DNA from: a virus
Strand: one strand, 5' to 3'
DNA length: 64,000 bases
Virus record (IMG/VR): IMGVR_UViG_3300046314_000658
The first letter of the stretch is position 1, and each line of letters starts with the position of its first letter. Positions 14,902 to 55,486 of the stretch are shown piece after piece. The notes beneath the pieces are model-generated. The model saw only the letters and a program-made list of their open reading frames with translations, ran no database searches and was not told the origin of the DNA. A program made the position numbers and the translations under genes.

Positions 14902-15720
14902 TTACTTAAACGCAACGCGTTGCACTACAGTTTGCTTCGTACCATTGTAACTGGTGTGGTCTTTCACAGTGAAAGCAGCAGTAGCAAACTCTTCGAATGG
15001 AGTTTCGTGACGACTTGTCCACCAGGTTAGTTGATTACCAGTAGAATCTTCCAGTGTAACCAACACGCGTGGGGTATTGGGATACGCAAAAGTGTTCCAA
15101 CCCACCTGCAAGCTACGCAGCACGCGCACTTTAGCAGCTTTCACACGCTCACCCACAGTACCGATATGTTTGCTATTAGCAGCAGCTTCAACTTGACGGC
15201 GTTGCACAACGAGTGCATTTTCAGTCGACTCGACTTGGCGAGCAGTGAGTGAACCCCACTGATTTAATTGCTGCTGCATAGACGACAGAAAACTATTCAC
15301 ACCAGCGTAGTCAGTTAGTGCTGCGACCAGTGCAGCGTGCTCATTCTTCCAAGCGGCGGCAAATTCTGCACGCTCCGCTTGACGAGCTTGGCGTTCAGCT
15401 TCCCACGCAGCTTGGCGAGTTGCACGACGTTCTGTTGCTTTTACAGCACGACGATCGCGAGCGTGTTGTAGACGAACTTTACGAAAGTCTTCAACCTGTT
15501 GACCAGTTTTCTCAACACAGTCGCATCCGACCACAAATGTCTTGTCGTTCTTGTCTTTAATTACATACTCATACAAAATACCCGTACCGCAGTAGTTGCA
15601 AGAACCACCAGGCTTGCGACCAAAACCTGGCATCTCAAACCAGTTTTCGCGGCAACCAACACACCGAAAGGGAGCATAACCGAGACCAGCTTTTTCAAAT
15701 GGGTGTGTGAATGTAGTCAT
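14902..15720 (-). CDS. Hypothetical early protein (Zn-finger N-terminus, OB-like C-terminus)
   Basis: CNYCG...VGCDC motifs; SD AAAGGA. Confidence 0.7.
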   Translation of the reverse strand: MTTFTHPFEKAGLGYAPFRCVGCRENWFEMPGFGRKPGGSCNYCGTGILYEYVIKDKNDKTFVVGCDCVEKTGQQVEDFRKVRLQHARDRRAVKATERRATRQAAWEAERQARQAERAEFAAAWKNEHAALVAALTDYAGVNSFLSSMQQQLNQWGSLTARQVESTENALVVQRRQVEAAANSKHIGTVGERVKAAKVRVLRSLQVGWNTFAYPNTPRVLVTLEDSTGNQLTWWTSRHETPFEEFATAAFTVKDHTSYNGTKQTVVQRVAFK

Positions 15721-15778: not shown

Positions 15779-16351
15779 TTAACGCTTACCAGTGAAGATG
15801 CTCACGTAATATTGCGCATTTGCAACTGTAATGTTCCATTCTTCTGCAATTCTCTTCGCAATTTGGTAGGGAGTGTGGGTACCATATGCATTCAATCGAT
15901 CGAAAGTCGCGCGAGCATTAGCACGCTTGGTTGCAGCAGATGTAGTGTTTACAGGCTTCTCATCGATTGGAGTAGGAGCAGATGCAACAGAATCAGTCCA
16001 GTAGAACGTGATCCGCGATTTCCCACCAACTTTCCAAGAATCATGCAGGACTCCATTGATGATAGCAAATGCGTGACCACGCTTCAGACCATACACCTTT
16101 CCAGTGGGATTGGCAGCAATTAATTGGTTCAGCGTCATCCCGGCACCGTCTTTACGAGAATTGCGACCAATTAGATCATAGATTATGTGATTCTTAGTCC
16201 CGCGACCGTCGCGTCGACCAAGCTTCTTGAAAATGCAATGAGCTTCGTTATATGGGATGTCTTTGAACAGTGCATATGCACGCACTGCACAGTCGTTATG
16301 CTCTGCAAAACCTGAACTACGCATTCCACCATCAGTCTTAACGAATTGCAT
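15779..16351 (-). CDS. Hypothetical early protein (NDCAVRA...H..A...G..HD motif, possibly papain-like)
   Basis: Start MQFVKTDGG at 16351 with GGAG SD; Cys/His/Asp arrangement. Confidence 0.65.
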   Translation of the reverse strand: MQFVKTDGGMRSSGFAEHNDCAVRAYALFKDIPYNEAHCIFKKLGRRDGRGTKNHIIYDLIGRNSRKDGAGMTLNQLIAANPTGKVYGLKRGHAFAIINGVLHDSWKVGGKSRITFYWTDSVASAPTPIDEKPVNTTSAATKRANARATFDRLNAYGTHTPYQIAKRIAEEWNITVANAQYYVSIFTGKR

Positions 16352-47437: not shown

Positions 47438-47474
47438 TGGAGGGTAGATAGGTACTCGATTGTGTATTTATCTG

Positions 47475-47510
47475 TGCAACGTTGTCAACAACGTTGCAAA
47501 CTGGTAACTT
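47475..47510 (+). promoter_or_regulatory. Sigma70-like promoter overlapped by a 24-bp palindrome
   Basis: TTGTCA-17-TAACTT with a TGn extension; TGCAACGTTG-tcaa-CAACGTTGCA. Confidence 0.5.
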
Positions 47511-47533
47511 TAATTGGTACTGTTCAAACAAAT

Positions 47534-48106
47534 ATGGCAAAAAAATCTACAAAAGCACCAGCAATTGCATCAATTGAAACGATCATTGACGACATTCCCG
47601 ATGAAGTTATTGCAGAGATCATCGATGCACCAGTTGTCGAAGAGGTAGTTCAAGTTGTAGACATCGGAGCTCTCGAAAAGCCTGGTGTATACGTAACCAA
47701 CAAAGCTCTACTAGCAGAATTCAAACGTAGTCGGGAAAAGGGCGAAATGACCACTGAACTTGCTAAGATGGTCATGTTAATATGCGAGCGGTATGCTCGA
47801 CGTGGTAGTTATGCTAGTTATACATACAACGAAGACCTACAAAGTTTTGCATTAATGAATCTTGTGAAGTCGTGGAAGAGCTTCAATCCTGAAAAATCAC
47901 AAAATCCTTTTGCTTATTTCACTAGTTGCATTCACAACTCGTTCTTGCAATATCTCAATCAAGAGCGCAAACATCGCAATATTCGCGACGCTCTGCTCGT
48001 AGAAAATGGACTTGACCCTTCGTATACCTACACAGGCTCATACAAATACGATGGTGACAAGACTGATAGCTCTACAGAATCCACAACCGATGAAAAAGCC
48101 GAATAA
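47534..48106 (+). CDS. Late-transcription sigma factor (T4 gp55-like)
   Basis: YVTNKALL, YTYNEDL, FNPEKSQNPFAYFT; directly upstream of gp47/gp46. Confidence 0.88.
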   Translation: MAKKSTKAPAIASIETIIDDIPDEVIAEIIDAPVVEEVVQVVDIGALEKPGVYVTNKALLAEFKRSREKGEMTTELAKMVMLICERYARRGSYASYTYNEDLQSFALMNLVKSWKSFNPEKSQNPFAYFTSCIHNSFLQYLNQERKHRNIRDALLVENGLDPSYTYTGSYKYDGDKTDSSTESTTDEKAE

Positions 48107-49163: not shown

Positions 49164-50921
49164 ATGCTTAAAATAAAACAAATCTCATTTCGTAATTTTC
49201 GCTCGTACGGTAAAGTCGACACTGTAGTAAATTTTGAAACCCCTGGCACTACGCTACTAACAGGAAAAAATGATGATGGTGGAACGACGAATGGGCACGG
49301 TAAAACTTCCATTTTATTTGCACTCACGTGGTTGCTGTATGATAAGGTTATTGACTCCATCAACAAAGATGAATTGATAAACAACACAAATAAAGTTGAC
49401 ATGCATGGTGAGGTTTCGTTTTCAGTCAAGAATGATGAAGTCGTTGTAAAGCGGTGGCGCAAAAGTGGCAAAGGCAATCGCGACAATGGTGCAGCATTGT
49501 TTATCAATGGTATTGATGTTACTCCAGCTGGGAATGATAAAATTAATCTAAAAATTCAGGAGTTGATTGGAATTGACTTTGAGTTATTTTCACGAATTGT
49601 TGTGTACAGCGCATCAAACAAGAGTTTCTTCGACTTACCATCAACATCTCATTACGAATCTAACCAAACTGACATGGTTGAGCAGTTATTTAATTTGCAA
49701 ATGTTATCCGAGCGGGCAGTTGCACTCAAAGCACAAATAAAAACTACTGAAACAGATCTAATTACTCAAAAAAAGCTAATTGAACAAGCAGAGAAACAAT
49801 TAGAGTCGCATTCTACGCTCGTCAATAAGACAGAACAGCGAAAGGGCATCTGGGAACAGAATCGCTTGAATGAAATGAGTGCGATTGAAGCTGACTTAGA
49901 TTTGATTACTCACGTCAATTTTGATGAGGAAAAGAAGTATCACGATACAATAACTGAGTGTGTAGCTACACGGAAGGAGTTGCTTGGTGAGAAGCGAGTA
50001 CATGAAAATGTACACAACACACTAACTCGTCAAGTGAAAGAGTTGAAAAGTGAAGTGGCGAGTCTTTCTGATTCAACCTGCCCATATTGCGAGCAAGAGT
50101 TTGCGGGCGCAGCAGATAAACGCAAACAGGTACAAGAGCAACTGGTTAAATTTACCGCTCAGTTAGAATCCATTACAACCGAGATTGCAGAATGTAACAC
50201 TCAGATTGCAACACTAGATCGACTAACGAAAAACACACTTGCAAAAACTACTGTCAATGATTTTGATCACCTCGTTGAATTAAAAGCAACCCACAATGAT
50301 CTGGTAGCAAAACTAACTCAACTTAAAGAGCAATTTAATCCACACACCGAGACTCTACAAGAATTGATTGATGCAAAACCAATTGTTCCAGATTTTAATT
50401 CAATCAACACACTAACAACGCTAAACGAACACCAACAGTTCTTGTTAAAGCTATTAACAAAAAAAGATTCTTTCCTTCGTAAAGCATTGCTATACAAAAA
50501 CATTCCACTGTTGAATGAACGAATGTCTTTCTACCTCGAAAGCCTTGGTTTACCACACACTGTAGAATTTACTCCAGCATTGACAGCTAACATCACACAA
50601 TTCGGACGTGAACTATCGTTTGGCAGTCTAAGCAATGGACAAAAGGCTCGTGTAAATTTTGCTCTGTCGTTAGCATTCGGAGACTTATTGCAAGAGATTC
50701 ACCAAAAGATTAATATTCAACTTTTTGACGAGGTATTAGACATAGGACTAGATGCACATGGTGTGTCATCTGCATCGCGACTACTAAAACAAAAAGCTCG
50801 TAAAGAGGGGTTAGCTATTTTTATGATCACTCACAGGGATGAACTTGCGAATGCGTTTGATAACCAACTAATCGTGCGGCAAAAAGATGGTTTTTCTTAC
50901 ATTGAAACAACTAAAGTGTAG
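49164..50921 (+). CDS. Recombination ATPase gp46 (SbcC/Rad50-like)
   Basis: NGHGKT, Zn hook CPYC, LSNGQ, FDEVLD, ITH. Confidence 0.92.
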   Translation: MLKIKQISFRNFRSYGKVDTVVNFETPGTTLLTGKNDDGGTTNGHGKTSILFALTWLLYDKVIDSINKDELINNTNKVDMHGEVSFSVKNDEVVVKRWRKSGKGNRDNGAALFINGIDVTPAGNDKINLKIQELIGIDFELFSRIVVYSASNKSFFDLPSTSHYESNQTDMVEQLFNLQMLSERAVALKAQIKTTETDLITQKKLIEQAEKQLESHSTLVNKTEQRKGIWEQNRLNEMSAIEADLDLITHVNFDEEKKYHDTITECVATRKELLGEKRVHENVHNTLTRQVKELKSEVASLSDSTCPYCEQEFAGAADKRKQVQEQLVKFTAQLESITTEIAECNTQIATLDRLTKNTLAKTTVNDFDHLVELKATHNDLVAKLTQLKEQFNPHTETLQELIDAKPIVPDFNSINTLTTLNEHQQFLLKLLTKKDSFLRKALLYKNIPLLNERMSFYLESLGLPHTVEFTPALTANITQFGRELSFGSLSNGQKARVNFALSLAFGDLLQEIHQKINIQLFDEVLDIGLDAHGVSSASRLLKQKARKEGLAIFMITHRDELANAFDNQLIVRQKDGFSYIETTKV

Positions 50922-50924
50922 GTG

Positions 50925-51419
50925 CTAACTAAAGAACTCAGTATCTGACAAAGTTAGCAGGTCTTCCAGTGTGTAAATGTAGTTTGATTTATATACCAAT
51001 CGAACAGGAATCGTAGAATATAACTGCTTAACAATGGCTAACTCTCGAACACTATTGTATTTTACGATCAATAGTGGAGATTTACCGGATTTTGCACTAT
51101 CCTGTTCAACCTGACTCAACCATCCATCCCATTGCTTAACTTCTCCTGATACGATTGCAGTAAACGTTGGGGGAGTTTTGTAGTGTTTACACTCAATTGA
51201 GAATTTGAAATTAACTGGACACAACAAATCTCCAAAATTGGCATGATCCGTGTCATGTGTATCCGTACGAGTTTTATTGCCGCCGCCAAAAAACGCACCA
51301 CTATCTGGATTTCTCCGAAAAGATGTTGAGATTCCAGTTAACGCCGCAAATCGAGCGGAAAACATTGTAGAAATCTTTCGTTCGAACGTAGATCCTTTAT
51401 TTTTCGAGTTTATACTCAT
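50925..51419 (-). CDS. Holliday junction resolvase (Hjc-like)
   Basis: Start MSINSKNKGSTFER; SGA, GDL, IECK; TAAATA at 51443-51448. Confidence 0.75.
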   Translation of the reverse strand: MSINSKNKGSTFERKISTMFSARFAALTGISTSFRRNPDSGAFFGGGNKTRTDTHDTDHANFGDLLCPVNFKFSIECKHYKTPPTFTAIVSGEVKQWDGWLSQVEQDSAKSGKSPLLIVKYNSVRELAIVKQLYSTIPVRLVYKSNYIYTLEDLLTLSDTEFFS

Positions 51420-51606
51420 TTCTCGTAGCTCCAGTGTTTTTGTATTTACGAAATGTGTACCTGCAGTTAGCCCCCAAAAGGGTATACTAATCAAACTTGA
51501 TTGCACTAGCACATGTTCAGTTGTCAACACAATTATGTTAATGTAGGTTGAACTATCTGAAACAGCACTCGTGTGTTAACCCTATAATGTTAGCGATATG
51601 AGAGGT

Positions 51607-51658
51607 TGTACTAAATAGCGGTCAGTTGATTCAAATTTCATGACCGCTATTTAGTACA
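51607..51658. repeat. Perfect 18-bp inverted repeat, each arm containing TAAATA
   Basis: TGTACTAAATAGCGGTCA-16 nt-TGACCGCTATTTAGTACA. Confidence 0.9.
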
Positions 51659-51686
51659 TCTTTAGTACACATTTTTAAATAACATC

Positions 51687-52007
51687 ATCAGTTTGTTGGT
51701 ACCGTACAAACCTTCTTATTGCCTTAGTACTTGTGACAATTTGGACATTCAAGAAGTCTGCGACATCGTTAATGGCGAGGCAGCTTTCAGGTGATGATCG
51801 TGTAACCGTGTGAAATAGAACGGCTGCATCGCAGGAGAATATCCTGTTGCAGGAGCTTTGTGAATGAGCTCGTAAAACCCTTCAAAGACACCTGTAAACT
51901 CAGATAGCAACAGTGACCGACCTGTCCCCAGGCGGTGGTAAACAACTGACCTATCTGATGCAGCAGTGCGCAATGTACTGAACTTAACTGCAAAAATTTC
52001 ACAAGTA
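51687..52007 (+). ncRNA. Candidate large structured ncRNA
   Basis: TAAATA at 51676; closing stem 51728-51742/51994-52007; several nested helices, one pseudoknot, and G-U pairs favouring the plus strand. Confidence 0.55.
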
Positions 52008-52338
52008 ATTATCGCTCTTCTCTTTTTACATCTCCTCTTTACCCTTATTCTGACAATCTTGTATAACTGGCAATTCTGCTCGGCCTGCACCCAATGGTCG
52101 ATAGGGGGGATATCGATGCCTTTGAAAACCAAATGCACACTAAGTCCCATCTAGTCCCATCTAGTTAAAGTACTAATTCTGCTGTGATTAGACTGTATTT
52201 AAAATTGCTCTAATAGAGTTCTTATTAGTTTGCTTGATGTGAAGTGCGAATATTATGAGGTTGTGCAACAACCGAAGTAATATGAGCAACTTGCACCGGA
52301 GGTGCGATAAATAGTTAGTCTTAATGGATACCTGCCTA

Positions 52339-52707
52339 ATGCGTGCGCTATACAGAGGTTTTTCTCTTCACGAGTACCAGCGAAAAGGTACGACTAAAAT
52401 AAATGACTTAGACCTAGTTAAGTTAAATCTTCTTACTCACATATACACGTCAAAAGGTGAGAGATTAGGTATGACTACGTTTGGTACACGAATTCCAGAA
52501 TTATTATTTGAGCAGTTAGACCAACGTGCTATCAACGCAATTACAGAGGATTTGACCTACGTATTTGCATATGAGCCGCGTGTCAAATTAAACAGCATGA
52601 ATGTAACACCAGTGTATGAACGTGGTGCCATCATAGTGGAAGCAGATCTGACCTACCTGGAATTGAATGTAAGTGAACCATTTGTTTTGCAGCTCACATT
52701 TCAATAA
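52339..52707 (+). CDS. Baseplate wedge gp25-like
   Basis: KGERL..FGTRI..LLFE, EPRV; start MRALYRGFS. Confidence 0.85.
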   Translation: MRALYRGFSLHEYQRKGTTKINDLDLVKLNLLTHIYTSKGERLGMTTFGTRIPELLFEQLDQRAINAITEDLTYVFAYEPRVKLNSMNVTPVYERGAIIVEADLTYLELNVSEPFVLQLTFQ

Positions 52708-52732: not shown

Positions 52733-55486
52733 ATGATCAATCCTCCATCAACAAACTTTGCTGAGCAATGGGTAAAGCAATACACTCAGCTTAATAAAGC
52801 CATTTCTTACAAAGCGTTTGATTTCAATGGGATTAAGCAATCTCTTATTAATTACCTCCGTACCTATCACCCTGAGCATTTCAACAATTTGACTGAAACA
52901 GATGAATTACTTGCACTAATTGAGATGTTTGCATATGTGGGTGAGTTGTACGCCTATCGTGCTGATGTCAATACACAGGAACATGTATTATCTGCTACAA
53001 CACGCAAATCTAGTGCTATTCAGATAGCAAACATGCTTGGGTATACACCATCTAGACGAGTTGCAGCTGTTGGACTTGTGAAATTAACATCAATCTCAAC
53101 AACTGAAACAATCACTGATGCGGATGGATCTAATTTAGCACGACGTGTAGTTAAGTGGGCTGACCAATCCAATGCTCGTTGGAAAGCACAGTTTGAATTA
53201 ATTCTACGTCGCGTACTCAACACTACTACTGGGGTATTCTCCGATTCGGATAAAACTCAAGTTGAGAATATTACATTCGAGCGTTATGTTATGAATACAA
53301 AAGCACTTGTTGGTGGGGTATTCAAGTACACTACCACTGTTAATGGTGTATCTGTTCCTATGGAGCTTATCGGTACTCAGTTGCAATCTGGATCAATTGT
53401 AGAATTACCTCCGACTGGTGACCGACCTATTGATATACTATATGCAAATGACGGATTTGGAGATAACTCTCCATCGACTGGGTATATGTTTTTAACTAAG
53501 CAAGGTAACCTATCCTCTATCTCAACATCATTTAGTGGTAGTAGCGTCAATCTAACTCAACCAATTAATGCTGCTGGCATTAATGATACGGATGTTTGGT
53601 TAAATGCAGTAGACGCAGTTGGTGCTTTTAAAGCCGCGTGGTCTCAAGTCGATAACATTGCATATAATCAGTCTGTTGATGCGACGGTGTTTCAGGTTGT
53701 ATCCCGAGAGAACGATCAAGTATCATTGGTGTTTGGTGATGGTAATTACTCTACCATTCCAAAGGGGGATTTTCAGATTTGGTACCGAACTAGTTTGGAG
53801 CTGGATGGGACTATTCCGATTAATGCTATTGCAAATACCCCACTTATTATGCAGTATGTTGACACGTATGGGAACAATCAAACGTTGACGTGCACATTTT
53901 CGTTGCAATCCCCTATTGTTACTAGCTCGTCGTCTGAAACATTGGCAAAATTACAACAAGCTGTTCCGGGTGTATTTTATACCCAAGATCGTATGGTTAA
54001 CGCCCAAGATCATCAGAACTTTTTGTTGCAAGATCCTTCGGTTGTAAAAATTAAAGCAGTTAATCGTACATTTGCTGGACACTCTAAGTATAGTAGTTGG
54101 CATGATGGTAGTGAAAGCTATGATAATGTTAAAATCTTCAGTGATGATGGAGTGCTGTATTTGGATGATAGTGTAACAACACACGAATTCCTTAATACCA
54201 ACAATTCAGTTTCTTACACAAACTTTGTATCGCAGGAGTTATCAACACTCCTACACTATCCGGAATTGTGGTCATATATCACTAGACGTTTCACTGGTGC
54301 TGTAGTAACACCTCGCACATATTTCACACCAGCTGAGCAAACTGCAATTGCTGCAGCACTTCAAGGTCAAGCAATTGGTAGTGTTGTTGGTGTACATTGG
54401 AATAATGTGTCTTCGAATTGGTCAGTTATAACACAATCGGATAACACACACGACATTACAATTCGATTACTCAACACTGCCGCAGGGTGGTCTGTACAGA
54501 CGTGTGTTAGTAAAGTAATGTTGTACAGCGCCTCAACGCGTTTTTGGCAGTACTCGTCTGTTTCTGGTATAGATTATGATACAGTTAATCCAACGAATGA
54601 CTTAATAACAATACTACAGGCCAACACAGATAGTACTAATAATTTACTTGCTGATACAATCCGTTTTAAAATTTCCAACAATGTTGAATTACAACGTCTA
54701 ATCCCATATCAAGCGAGTGTTGATTTACATCGTGTACAAATCACTGAGGCTGTAGGAAACGCGATACCACTTGCTGCGCTATTTGGATCGACTTCTCCAA
54801 CCTACGTATATTTTACACCGGATGGCTCTCCGACTACATCCACAGGAGTGGGTGCCGTGCGAAAAATCGGTCGATCTAGCCTTAACTTTTTATGGCAGCA
54901 TTTTACTGATCAATTTGAGATCGTTAATCCTGCTCGTACCAATATTATAGATTTATATGTTGTAACAAAACAATACTACACAGATTTTGTGCGCTGGCTT
55001 CAGCATACAAACGCGTCAAAACCTGTGTTACCTTCTGTCACGCAACTGGCTACTGCTTATTCAAAATACATGCAGAAAGCAATGATGTCAGATGAGTTGG
55101 TTTTACGTCCTGGTAAGTTTAAGGTACTGTTTGGTCCTAGGGCAACTCCAACTCTACGAGCAACTATTCAGATTGTCCTCGCACCGGGATTACAAGCATC
55201 TAAGGATGCTGTAAAGCAAGATGTTGTAAATCTGGTTCGACAGTACTTTGATATTACCAATGTTGAGTTTGGCGACACTCTATACTTTTCAAACCTAAGT
55301 GCATATTTGCAAAACAACAGCAAGTACACACTAGGATCGATATTACTTGTTCCACTGTACCCTGGGTATCAATTTGGAGATTTGTACGAGTTGACTGCTG
55401 CACCAGATGAAATATTTGTGGCTGATATATCAGTCTCTGATGTGCAAATTGTTGATCAACTAACCTCAACTAACCTTCGGCAGTAA
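52733..55486 (+). CDS. Baseplate wedge gp6-like
   Basis: DFNGIKQSLINYL, A.MLGY.P, FGDG, QDRMVNAQD. Confidence 0.85.
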   Translation: MINPPSTNFAEQWVKQYTQLNKAISYKAFDFNGIKQSLINYLRTYHPEHFNNLTETDELLALIEMFAYVGELYAYRADVNTQEHVLSATTRKSSAIQIANMLGYTPSRRVAAVGLVKLTSISTTETITDADGSNLARRVVKWADQSNARWKAQFELILRRVLNTTTGVFSDSDKTQVENITFERYVMNTKALVGGVFKYTTTVNGVSVPMELIGTQLQSGSIVELPPTGDRPIDILYANDGFGDNSPSTGYMFLTKQGNLSSISTSFSGSSVNLTQPINAAGINDTDVWLNAVDAVGAFKAAWSQVDNIAYNQSVDATVFQVVSRENDQVSLVFGDGNYSTIPKGDFQIWYRTSLELDGTIPINAIANTPLIMQYVDTYGNNQTLTCTFSLQSPIVTSSSSETLAKLQQAVPGVFYTQDRMVNAQDHQNFLLQDPSVVKIKAVNRTFAGHSKYSSWHDGSESYDNVKIFSDDGVLYLDDSVTTHEFLNTNNSVSYTNFVSQELSTLLHYPELWSYITRRFTGAVVTPRTYFTPAEQTAIAAALQGQAIGSVVGVHWNNVSSNWSVITQSDNTHDITIRLLNTAAGWSVQTCVSKVMLYSASTRFWQYSSVSGIDYDTVNPTNDLITILQANTDSTNNLLADTIRFKISNNVELQRLIPYQASVDLHRVQITEAVGNAIPLAALFGSTSPTYVYFTPDGSPTTSTGVGAVRKIGRSSLNFLWQHFTDQFEIVNPARTNIIDLYVVTKQYYTDFVRWLQHTNASKPVLPSVTQLATAYSKYMQKAMMSDELVLRPGKFKVLFGPRATPTLRATIQIVLAPGLQASKDAVKQDVVNLVRQYFDITNVEFGDTLYFSNLSAYLQNNSKYTLGSILLVPLYPGYQFGDLYELTAAPDEIFVADISVSDVQIVDQLTSTNLRQ

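Follow-up and report, generated by a model that had tools for sequence, protein, structure and literature searches.

Conserved RNA structure in the gap upstream of baseplate gene gp25 points to a new RNA family in uncultured freshwater giant phages

What fills the only large gap in an otherwise tightly packed stretch of giant-phage DNA? We asked this of a 64-kb stretch (IMG/VR record IMGVR_UViG_3300046314_000658; "the window" throughout means this whole stretch of 64,000 nucleotides), which is part of an uncultured freshwater giant T4-like phage and is carried by DNA runs from freshwater metagenomes. The gap, of ~900 bases (51420-52338), separates a resolvase gene from the baseplate wedge gene gp25 and is the sole one of such size in the window. 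A preliminary description, made from the letters of this DNA, had placed in it a pseudoknotted, plus-strand non-coding RNA of ~320 nt. Comparing the locus with its relatives, we find a conserved core from ~51687 to 52111 (~425 nt, plus strand) and consider it very likely that the gap carries real, selected RNA structure. The element constitutes a new RNA family, so far restricted to a single lineage among uncultured giant phages of fresh water.

Searches with the flanking proteins recovered relatives that share the gene order and a large gap 5' of gp25, and these fell into two clades: the window's own, with seven lineages (the window, L042, L027, L057, L038, L058 and L051, besides partial copies in L055 and L043), and a second clade of four (L031, L029, L052 and L053, plus their duplicates). 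The element stands upstream of gp25 in all seven lineages of the first clade and in all four of the second. DNA identity of the gap core to the window ranges from 89% (L042) and 87% (L027) through 78% (L038) to 71% (L058), and the flanking proteins of L027 are only 69-79% identical to the window's, compared with the 87% of its core DNA.

A single sequence is undecisive here, as its folding energy is unremarkable, and the evidence beyond chance comes from the comparison with relatives. The preliminary description had proposed a folding z-score as a check, and on this count its candidate fell short, with z-scores for 51676-52007 of -1.8 (plus strand) and -1.5 (minus strand), neither significant alone; the minimum-energy folds of single homologs were mutually inconsistent and were not used for the consensus. 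Applied to the core alignment (A5, 7 sequences; shuffle controls with n = 500), RNAalifold returned 80 pairs, 30 of them with compensatory double changes. One poorly supported helix of that prediction, CUGUA/UGCAG (51892-96/51959-63), was dropped and swapped for CAGG/CCUG, since the latter covaries, giving a revised structure of 81 pairs. Two-sided changes occur in 34 of these 81 pairs, compared with 13.4 +/- 2.4 in shuffles (0/500 as high), and 94% of cells at paired positions can pair, compared with 85% in shuffles (again 0/500 as high), while sliding the partners by 1-3 columns left only 1-10 pairs with two-sided changes. The central domain has a structure conservation index of 0.79 at 69% mean identity, and the consensus folding energy lies at z = -10.8 against column shuffles, with the plus strand outperforming its own reverse complement. 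G-U cells outnumber A-C cells 64 to 6, which fixes the plus strand as the folded one, as had been claimed at the outset. Judged by sequence comparison against both the shuffled and the slid controls, the compensatory changes are those of a conserved structured RNA; the resolvase-gp25 gaps of related phages, where the preliminary description had suggested looking for covariation, show it strongly.

The folded core has three sections: a hairpin at the 5' end, a central domain of many helices (P2; P3 and the three hairpins inside it; UAAAC; P4; P5) and a 3' domain (P6, P7 and GGGGGGAU). Its parts are as follows:

51691-51711, plus strand: P1, the 5' hairpin GUUUGU-loop-ACAAAC; in the fold, with its sequence conserved in the window's clade.
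51711-51716, plus strand: CCUUCU, which may pair over a long distance with the G-run at 52104-52109; present in the window's clade alone.
51728-51742 (5' arm) and 51994-52007 (3' arm), plus strand: closing stem, formed in the single-sequence fold.
51753-51787, plus strand: P2, two stacked helices around an invariant 2x2 internal loop (GA/AG), with cap hairpin CAUCG-UUAR-UGGCG.
51788-51894, plus strand: P3, CAGG(UG) 51788-93 with (CA)CCUG 51889-94; two-sided changes in 4/6 pairs.
51806-23, plus strand: P3a, inside P3; two-sided changes in 4/6 pairs.
51824-52, plus strand: P3b, inside P3; two-sided changes in 8/11 pairs.
51853-71, plus strand: P3c, inside P3; two-sided changes in 2/6 pairs.
51895-51899, plus strand: UAAAC, a conserved single-stranded junction.
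51900-51958, plus strand: P4 arm, a stack of three helices interrupted by internal loops, with an A-rich bulge and the loop UCCC.
51965-51979, plus strand: P5 hairpin AGUGC-GCAAU-GUACU; two-sided changes in 3/5 pairs, only 82% of cells paired.
52008-52068, plus strand: pyrimidine-rich linker of variable length and sequence, missing in L038, L058 and L051.
52069-52080, plus strand: P6, small hairpin GGCA-AUUC-UGCU; one pair with a two-sided change.
52081-52100, plus strand: P7, stem CGGCC/GGUCG with a 10-nt loop carrying CACCC (52088-92); 95% of cells paired in the window's clade.
52104-52111, plus strand: GGGGGGAU, the most conserved stretch of the whole element, at which strong conservation ends.

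Nearly all of the helices listed in the preliminary description lie where it had put them, and the minimum-energy fold of 51676-52007 reproduces most of them. Compensatory changes in relatives back CCGT/ACGG (51806-23), GCAGGA/TCCTGT (51831-47), GAGCTT/GAGCTC (51853-71), CAGATAG/CTATCTG (51900-58) and ACCG-CCTG/CAGG-CGGT (51916-36), and with weaker support CAGTGC/GTACTG (51965-79); within the P4 arm, two-sided changes fall in 4/7, 2/5 and 2/8 pairs of the helices 51900-07/51951-58, 51911-15/51943-48 and 51916-24/51929-36. The inner four pairs of CAGGTG/CACCTG (51788/51889) covary as well. The proposed helix GCTGCAT/ATGCAGC (51823/51958) finds no support: CTGCA at 51824-28 pairs locally with TGCAG at 51848-52, and 4/5 of those pairs covary. 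Because the 5' arm of that helix pairs locally, the claimed pseudoknot falls with it, and CAGGTG/CACCTG is nested, closing the three-hairpin insert and crossing nothing. Of the outer elements, the closing stem stands in part, being strong in the window and L042 (duplex z = -2.3 and -2.6) and carrying one G-C to U-A compensatory change in L027, while it is weak in L058 and absent in L038; it is real in the window and its nearest relatives and not universal. The 5' hairpin likewise holds for the window's clade, and the second clade has unrelated hairpins at the P1 position, after the promoter.

Of the central domain, P2 is conserved best when both clades are compared (10 sequences, 9 of them distinct), with 97% of cells paired, two-sided changes in 4 pairs, and a covariation score matched by 0/500 shuffles. 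The junction (G/C)UAAAC is kept in all sequences of both clades but L051 (GUAAAA), and at the position equivalent to P3 the second clade has GAAG/CUUC immediately 5' of UAAAC, enclosing different inner helices.

The 3' boundary at 52007 and the length of ~320 nt had been set too short, as conservation and structure reach 52111 and a further hairpin, module III, lies beyond. In the 3' domain, GGCA/UGCC of P6 becomes GACA/UGUC in relatives, and P7 in the second clade has a longer stem with one fully compensatory G-C to A-U change (L031 compared with L052). Among the 12 lineages that bear the element, only L046, with five Gs, departs from the six Gs of GGGGGGAU. RNAalifold pairs this G-run with CCUUCU at 51711, which is absent from the second clade; every variant of CCUUCU can still pair with it, because only C/U changes occur, and two-sided covariation is absent, because the G-run is invariant. 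The CACCC loop of P7 could also pair with the G-run to form a candidate H-type pseudoknot in the 3' domain; its loop varies by C/U only, so that changes in the CACCC/GGGGGG second helix are on one side only, and it is the P7 stem itself that is supported. H-type pseudoknots are known in regulatory RNAs, for example in the T4 gene 32 mRNA leader, and the P7 C-rich loop with its downstream invariant G-run resembles them, except that the 3-nt connector here is short for a stem of 5-8 pairs. Covariation cannot choose between the CACCC loop and CCUUCU as the G-run's partner, since the G-run never varies; further C-rich candidates in the window's clade are, besides CCUUCU at 51711, the UCCC loop at 51925.

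From GGGGGGAU to gp25 extends a poorly conserved spacer of ~165 to 440 nt among relatives, within which two hairpins are found in the window:

52246-52287, plus strand: module III, a rod-like hairpin containing a tandem G-A motif and an internal loop, UGA/GAA, that is invariant.
52293-52305, plus strand: small hairpin GCACC-GGA-GGUGC, following module III.

Module III has two-sided changes in 12/13 predicted pairs across 8 sequences, and a covariance-model search of the window found no second copy of it, so that it is single-copy there. The variable tail also holds a tandem direct repeat, (CTA)AGTCCCATCTAGTCCCATCTAG, at 52141-52165, and related TAGTCCCA-like words occur in the tails of L042, L057, L058 and L051; genome-wide, the TAGTCCCA repeat (52141-52165) gave no striking motif.

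How would such an RNA be made? The signals and the sigma factor that bear on this are:

51676-51681, plus strand: TAAATA, a T4-type late-promoter motif at the 5' edge of conservation.
52308-52313, plus strand: TAAATA, gp25's own late promoter, not part of the RNA and marking its downstream limit.
47534-48106: gp55-like late sigma factor gene, filling an apparent second large gap (47438-48005), its end overlapping the start of the next gene (48006).

Conservation with L027 begins sharply at the TAAATA at 51676. The same motif stands 25-35 nt upstream of the ATG in ~19/53 window genes, gp25, gp6 and the resolvase among them, and these genes have short A/C/U-rich leaders with no Shine-Dalgarno sequence; other window genes have sigma-70-like promoters and AGGA-type ribosome-binding sites (e.g., 14902-15720 and 15779-16351). 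We read TAAATA as a late promoter because ~19 genes carry it upstream and a gp55-like sigma factor is encoded. At the equivalent place the second clade has TATAAATA or TATAAGTA (L031 and L029 have TATAAATA), and as the exact TATAAATA is not enriched in the window, the shorter TAAATA serves as the working motif. With TAAATA at its 5' edge and a gp55-like sigma factor in the phage, the element appears to be a T4-type late transcription unit, of the kind in which a gp55-type sigma factor recognizes a TATAAATA-like -10 without a -35; its transcript would start at ~51687, a few nucleotides ahead of P1.

Small parts of the stretch are present in six RNA libraries. Four freshwater RNA libraries were examined over 1.5 kb, and each yielded a single contig, which maps within 51658-52058, with no contig on the resolvase or gp25; the one from run X20 crosses the pyrimidine-rich linker to 52058. 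Three of the four contigs are sequence variants, one of them with two compensatory P3a pairs (51807/51822 and 51808/51821). No contig covers 52059-52700 or 51200-51657, an absence that is uninformative in contig data. The preliminary description had asked for a transcript, and these contigs, mapping only to the element, are a hint of expression.

How far does the element extend beyond the two clades? L046 (gp25 78% identical) shows at 1796-1905 a late promoter and a long hairpin with an inner CCCCU/AGGGG hairpin, followed directly by P6, P7 and GGGGG. It is without the 300-nt central domain, keeps the 3' domain and module III, and has ~430 nt of other hairpins between the 3' domain and gp25; it is a natural minimal variant of the RNA. 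More distant relatives (gp25 ~39% identical) have no gap upstream of gp25 and no RNA. In L041:100-420 (gp25 51% identical) a gap without a copy of the RNA holds direct repeats of ~110-120 nt rich in CACACNCACAC. The metagenome scan contributed only L038 with a complete gap, two more motif scans for the 3' domain in IMG/VR brought no additional lineages, and the sole match in a motif scan of viral contigs, L023, was set aside as an unrelated chance match. As these motif scans and the profile searches found no other occurrence, the element is single-copy and lineage-specific. Among cultured phages, a blastn search of the gap against 50,697 phage records gave no match, and the nearest of them (Xanthomonas phages Xoo-sp13 and XacN1, Pseudomonas phage PA5oct and others) share only 31-34% gp6 identity.

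Nor does the element belong to a known family. Rfam searches gave no match in the 64-kb window at the gathering threshold, only spurious low-scoring matches at E <= 10 in 51400-52500 (none inside 51700-52030), and no relevant match at E <= 5 in the six homologous loci; the unmatched Rfam 15 families include GOLLD, ROOL, tmRNA, RNase P RNA, group I/II introns, known riboswitches and small ribozymes. ARAGORN found no tRNA and no tmRNA in the window, and a literature search returned no description of such an RNA. By eye, we noted a likeness to RNase P RNA (GUAAACUC...GCAA; GAAAGUCCGG in L051), a stretch recalling E. coli tmRNA (GUUAGUGGCG) and a T-box motif (GGUACCG), and dismissed all three because the motif order is wrong, the motifs are not conserved among homologs and the Rfam models are unmatched. 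The interpretation offered in the preliminary description, an unclassified, plus-strand, non-coding structured phage RNA, is supported, including its failure to match a known class at gathering or lax E-value thresholds in the window and the six homologous loci. As candidate functions it had offered a ribozyme, a packaging or scaffold RNA and a replication primer.

In kind, the RNA comes nearest to GOLLD and ROOL, large 'ornate' RNAs that phages and prophages encode and whose function is unknown (PMC12286853). In GOLLD the 3' region is universally conserved and the 5' region less so, the linkers vary, and expression increases in the course of phage lysis (PMC12286853). Our RNA resembles both in being phage-encoded, several hundred nt long and rich in covarying helices, and GOLLD in particular in that its 3' domain is the most conserved, its central domain is variable or missing (L046), its linkers vary and its promoter is of late type. 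It differs in that neither Rfam model matches it, even at E <= 10, and in being smaller, without neighboring tRNA genes, restricted to one freshwater lineage and fixed upstream of gp25; it is a member of neither.

Two smaller phage RNAs also invite comparison. The stable small RNAs of T4 (species 1 and 2, band C and D), whose function is unknown, are encoded within the tRNA gene cluster and undergo processing together with the tRNAs; like them, our element would be a non-coding, stable RNA of a T4-type phage, whereas it is much longer, has its own late-type promoter and lies between resolvase and baseplate genes. The pRNA of phi29, brought to mind by the packaging RNA among the preliminary description's candidates, is found at ~120-174 nt in phi29-like podoviruses and makes intermolecular loop-loop pairs at the portal. 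It too is a phage-encoded structured RNA and works in the virion assembly machinery, but no such conserved complementary loops were seen in our element, and T4-type packaging motors are not known to need an RNA.

What, then, is the RNA for, and does it belong to its neighbors? The genes around the gap are:

49164-50921, plus strand: gp46, left of the gap.
50925-51419, minus strand: PDDEXK/RusA-like resolvase, bordering the gap on the left.
52339-52707, plus strand: baseplate wedge gp25, bordering the gap on the right.
52733-55486, plus strand: gp6, after gp25.

The left-hand neighbor is not constant. The resolvase is on the minus strand in the window, in L046 and in the second clade, and on the plus strand, at only ~35% identity, in L027, L042, L038 and L058 (the plus-strand genes compared with the window's were L027:1832-2410, L042:1386-1889, L047:1201-1713 and L058:1091-1603). 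The resolvase was replaced or flipped while the RNA and gp25 kept their place. Immediately 5' of the RNA element, at 51606-51657, lies a perfect 17-bp inverted repeat (GTACTAAATAGCGGTCA ... TGACCGCTATTTAGTAC) with TAAATA inside each arm, giving two promoter-like motifs that point toward one another. The left arm of the repeat is similar to the 3' end of the resolvase gene that L042, L027 and L038 carry on the plus strand, and because of this resemblance the repeat may be a remnant of gene replacement.

The explanation we tentatively prefer, at slightly less than an even chance, is that the element is a gene in its own right, encoding a stable RNA that acts independently and in trans. It would be transcribed from the TAAATA at 51676 by the gp55-type late RNA polymerase of the phage, and the RNA would accumulate as a stable species whose 5' hairpin and 3' domain protect its ends. 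It would then act in trans late in infection, as a folded scaffold or decoy binding one or more phage or host factors, for which the putative binding sites would be the invariant unpaired positions: the P2 GA/AG loop with the UUAGYGG hairpin, UAAAC, the A-rich bulge and the C-rich/G-rich loops. Independence from gp25 (the gene's own promoter, the variable spacer, and RNA-less relatives that lack the gap) suggests such a stand-alone role.

Several observations weigh against this preference. With 7 + 4 lineages the alignment is small, and it served both to derive the consensus structure and to score it. The element always stands upstream of gp25-gp6 in the same orientation, which suits a cis role too, and, there being no intrinsic terminator after the core, the RNA may run on into gp25. 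The central domain is dispensable in at least one lineage, given that L046 lacks it. The RNA-library data are assembled contigs, which report presence only and not strand, ends or level, and which may reflect DNA carry-over; one of them begins ~30 nt upstream of the promoter motif, and as its extra letters match the end of a plus-strand resolvase, as in L042, read-through from the upstream gene is suggested for that variant.

The main rival, which we judge unlikely on balance, treats the RNA as a long, folded 5' leader, or a regulator in cis, of the gp25-gp6 baseplate-wedge operon: read-through from 51676 to gp25 would let the folds control processing, stability, termination or translation of the downstream late genes, possibly as a switch in which the Shine-Dalgarno-like G-run and the anti-Shine-Dalgarno-like CACCC loop pair or separate. 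The constant place and orientation upstream of gp25-gp6, even where the resolvase was flipped or replaced, fit such a leader, as do the position of module III directly before the gp25 promoter in several relatives and the lack of an intrinsic terminator between core and gp25. However, gp25 has its own TAAATA ~30 nt before its start in nearly all relatives, those without the RNA included, and the distance from the 3' domain to gp25 is variable and poorly conserved, spanning ~165-440 nt. An AUG directly follows the G-run in five relatives, which would suit a leader, but the tiny ORFs it opens show conservation of neither length nor sequence, and L046 and the second clade lack them. The RNA-library contigs, too, lie on the element in all four cases and on gp25 in none.

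By analogy with GOLLD and ROOL, the element might instead be a catalytic RNA or an RNA-only assembly, still a stand-alone gene, with its loops serving tertiary folding and oligomerization; we rate this as improbable, a step below the leader. Its size (at least 425 nt), multi-domain build, phage origin and apparently late expression are in keeping with the idea, as are the invariant unpaired nucleotides, the candidate pseudoknot, and the combination of a conserved 3' region with variable 5'/central region and linkers, which are GOLLD traits (PMC12286853). On the other side, Rfam gives no match to GOLLD, ROOL or any ribozyme, no tRNA genes lie nearby, and none of the loops was seen to be both self-complementary and conserved: GGUACC, in the loop of P1, is not conserved.

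Could the conservation lie in the DNA itself? The element might then be an origin of replication with its priming transcript, a site for packaging or a hotspot of recombination, kept because proteins bind there or an R-loop forms at the G-run. The T4 uvsY origin adjoins gene 25, and the G-run could stabilize an RNA-DNA hybrid. Unusually many metagenome contigs end in or beside the gap (L020, L021, L025, L033, L043, L044, L049, L050 and L054). These breaks are likely explained by co-occurring strains that share a near-identical core with differing flanks, at which assembly graphs break; in the second clade, two lineages have a nearly identical ~400-nt core and divergent flanks. Moreover, the substitutions keep RNA pairs, with G-U over A-C by 64 to 6, a pattern that neither a double-stranded DNA site nor a cruciform is expected to show. 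The promoter belongs to the late type, and T4 origins rely on early or middle ones. A DNA-level element is thus very improbable and effectively excluded.

A protein gene, whether the minus-strand ORF of 133 codons (52150-51749), which is long for a 900-nt gap and stays open over 122 codons in L042, or a small plus-strand ORF, is the least probable reading of all and likewise effectively excluded, since the 133-codon ORF has no PHROG family match, is cut to pieces of 49, 34 and 40 codons in L027 and also broken in L057, L058 and L051, contains gaps that are not multiples of three, and shows no third-position excess of substitutions per codon position in comparison with three relatives (15/12/16, 24/28/23 and 30/35/32). 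The long minus-strand ORFs of the second clade lie in a different frame relative to the conserved DNA blocks. The preliminary description had called the overlapping ORFs not credible, and their breakage in relatives and lack of codon-position bias agree.

RNAs that are large, fold intricately, covary strongly and fall in no known family are rare, and GOLLD, ROOL, OLE, HEARO and raiA each led to new biology or a new RNA architecture. It is conceivable, if doubtful, that the element stands as the first member of a new class of phage RNAs of the large 'ornate' kind, late-expressed, 425-630 nt long, with three conserved modules and a tertiary architecture of its own, which would serve as a ribozyme, an RNA-only assembly or the RNA subunit of a phage ribonucleoprotein in late infection of freshwater bacteria. 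The RNA is well placed for follow-up, with a clear promoter, a fixed context, a relative (L046) that dissects its domains and an environmental hint of expression. Even if it turned out to do no more than lead the baseplate operon, a regulatory RNA this elaborate would be unusual in an operon of virion structural genes. To the late program of giant phages, whose gene content has otherwise been read almost wholly as protein, it adds a non-coding component.

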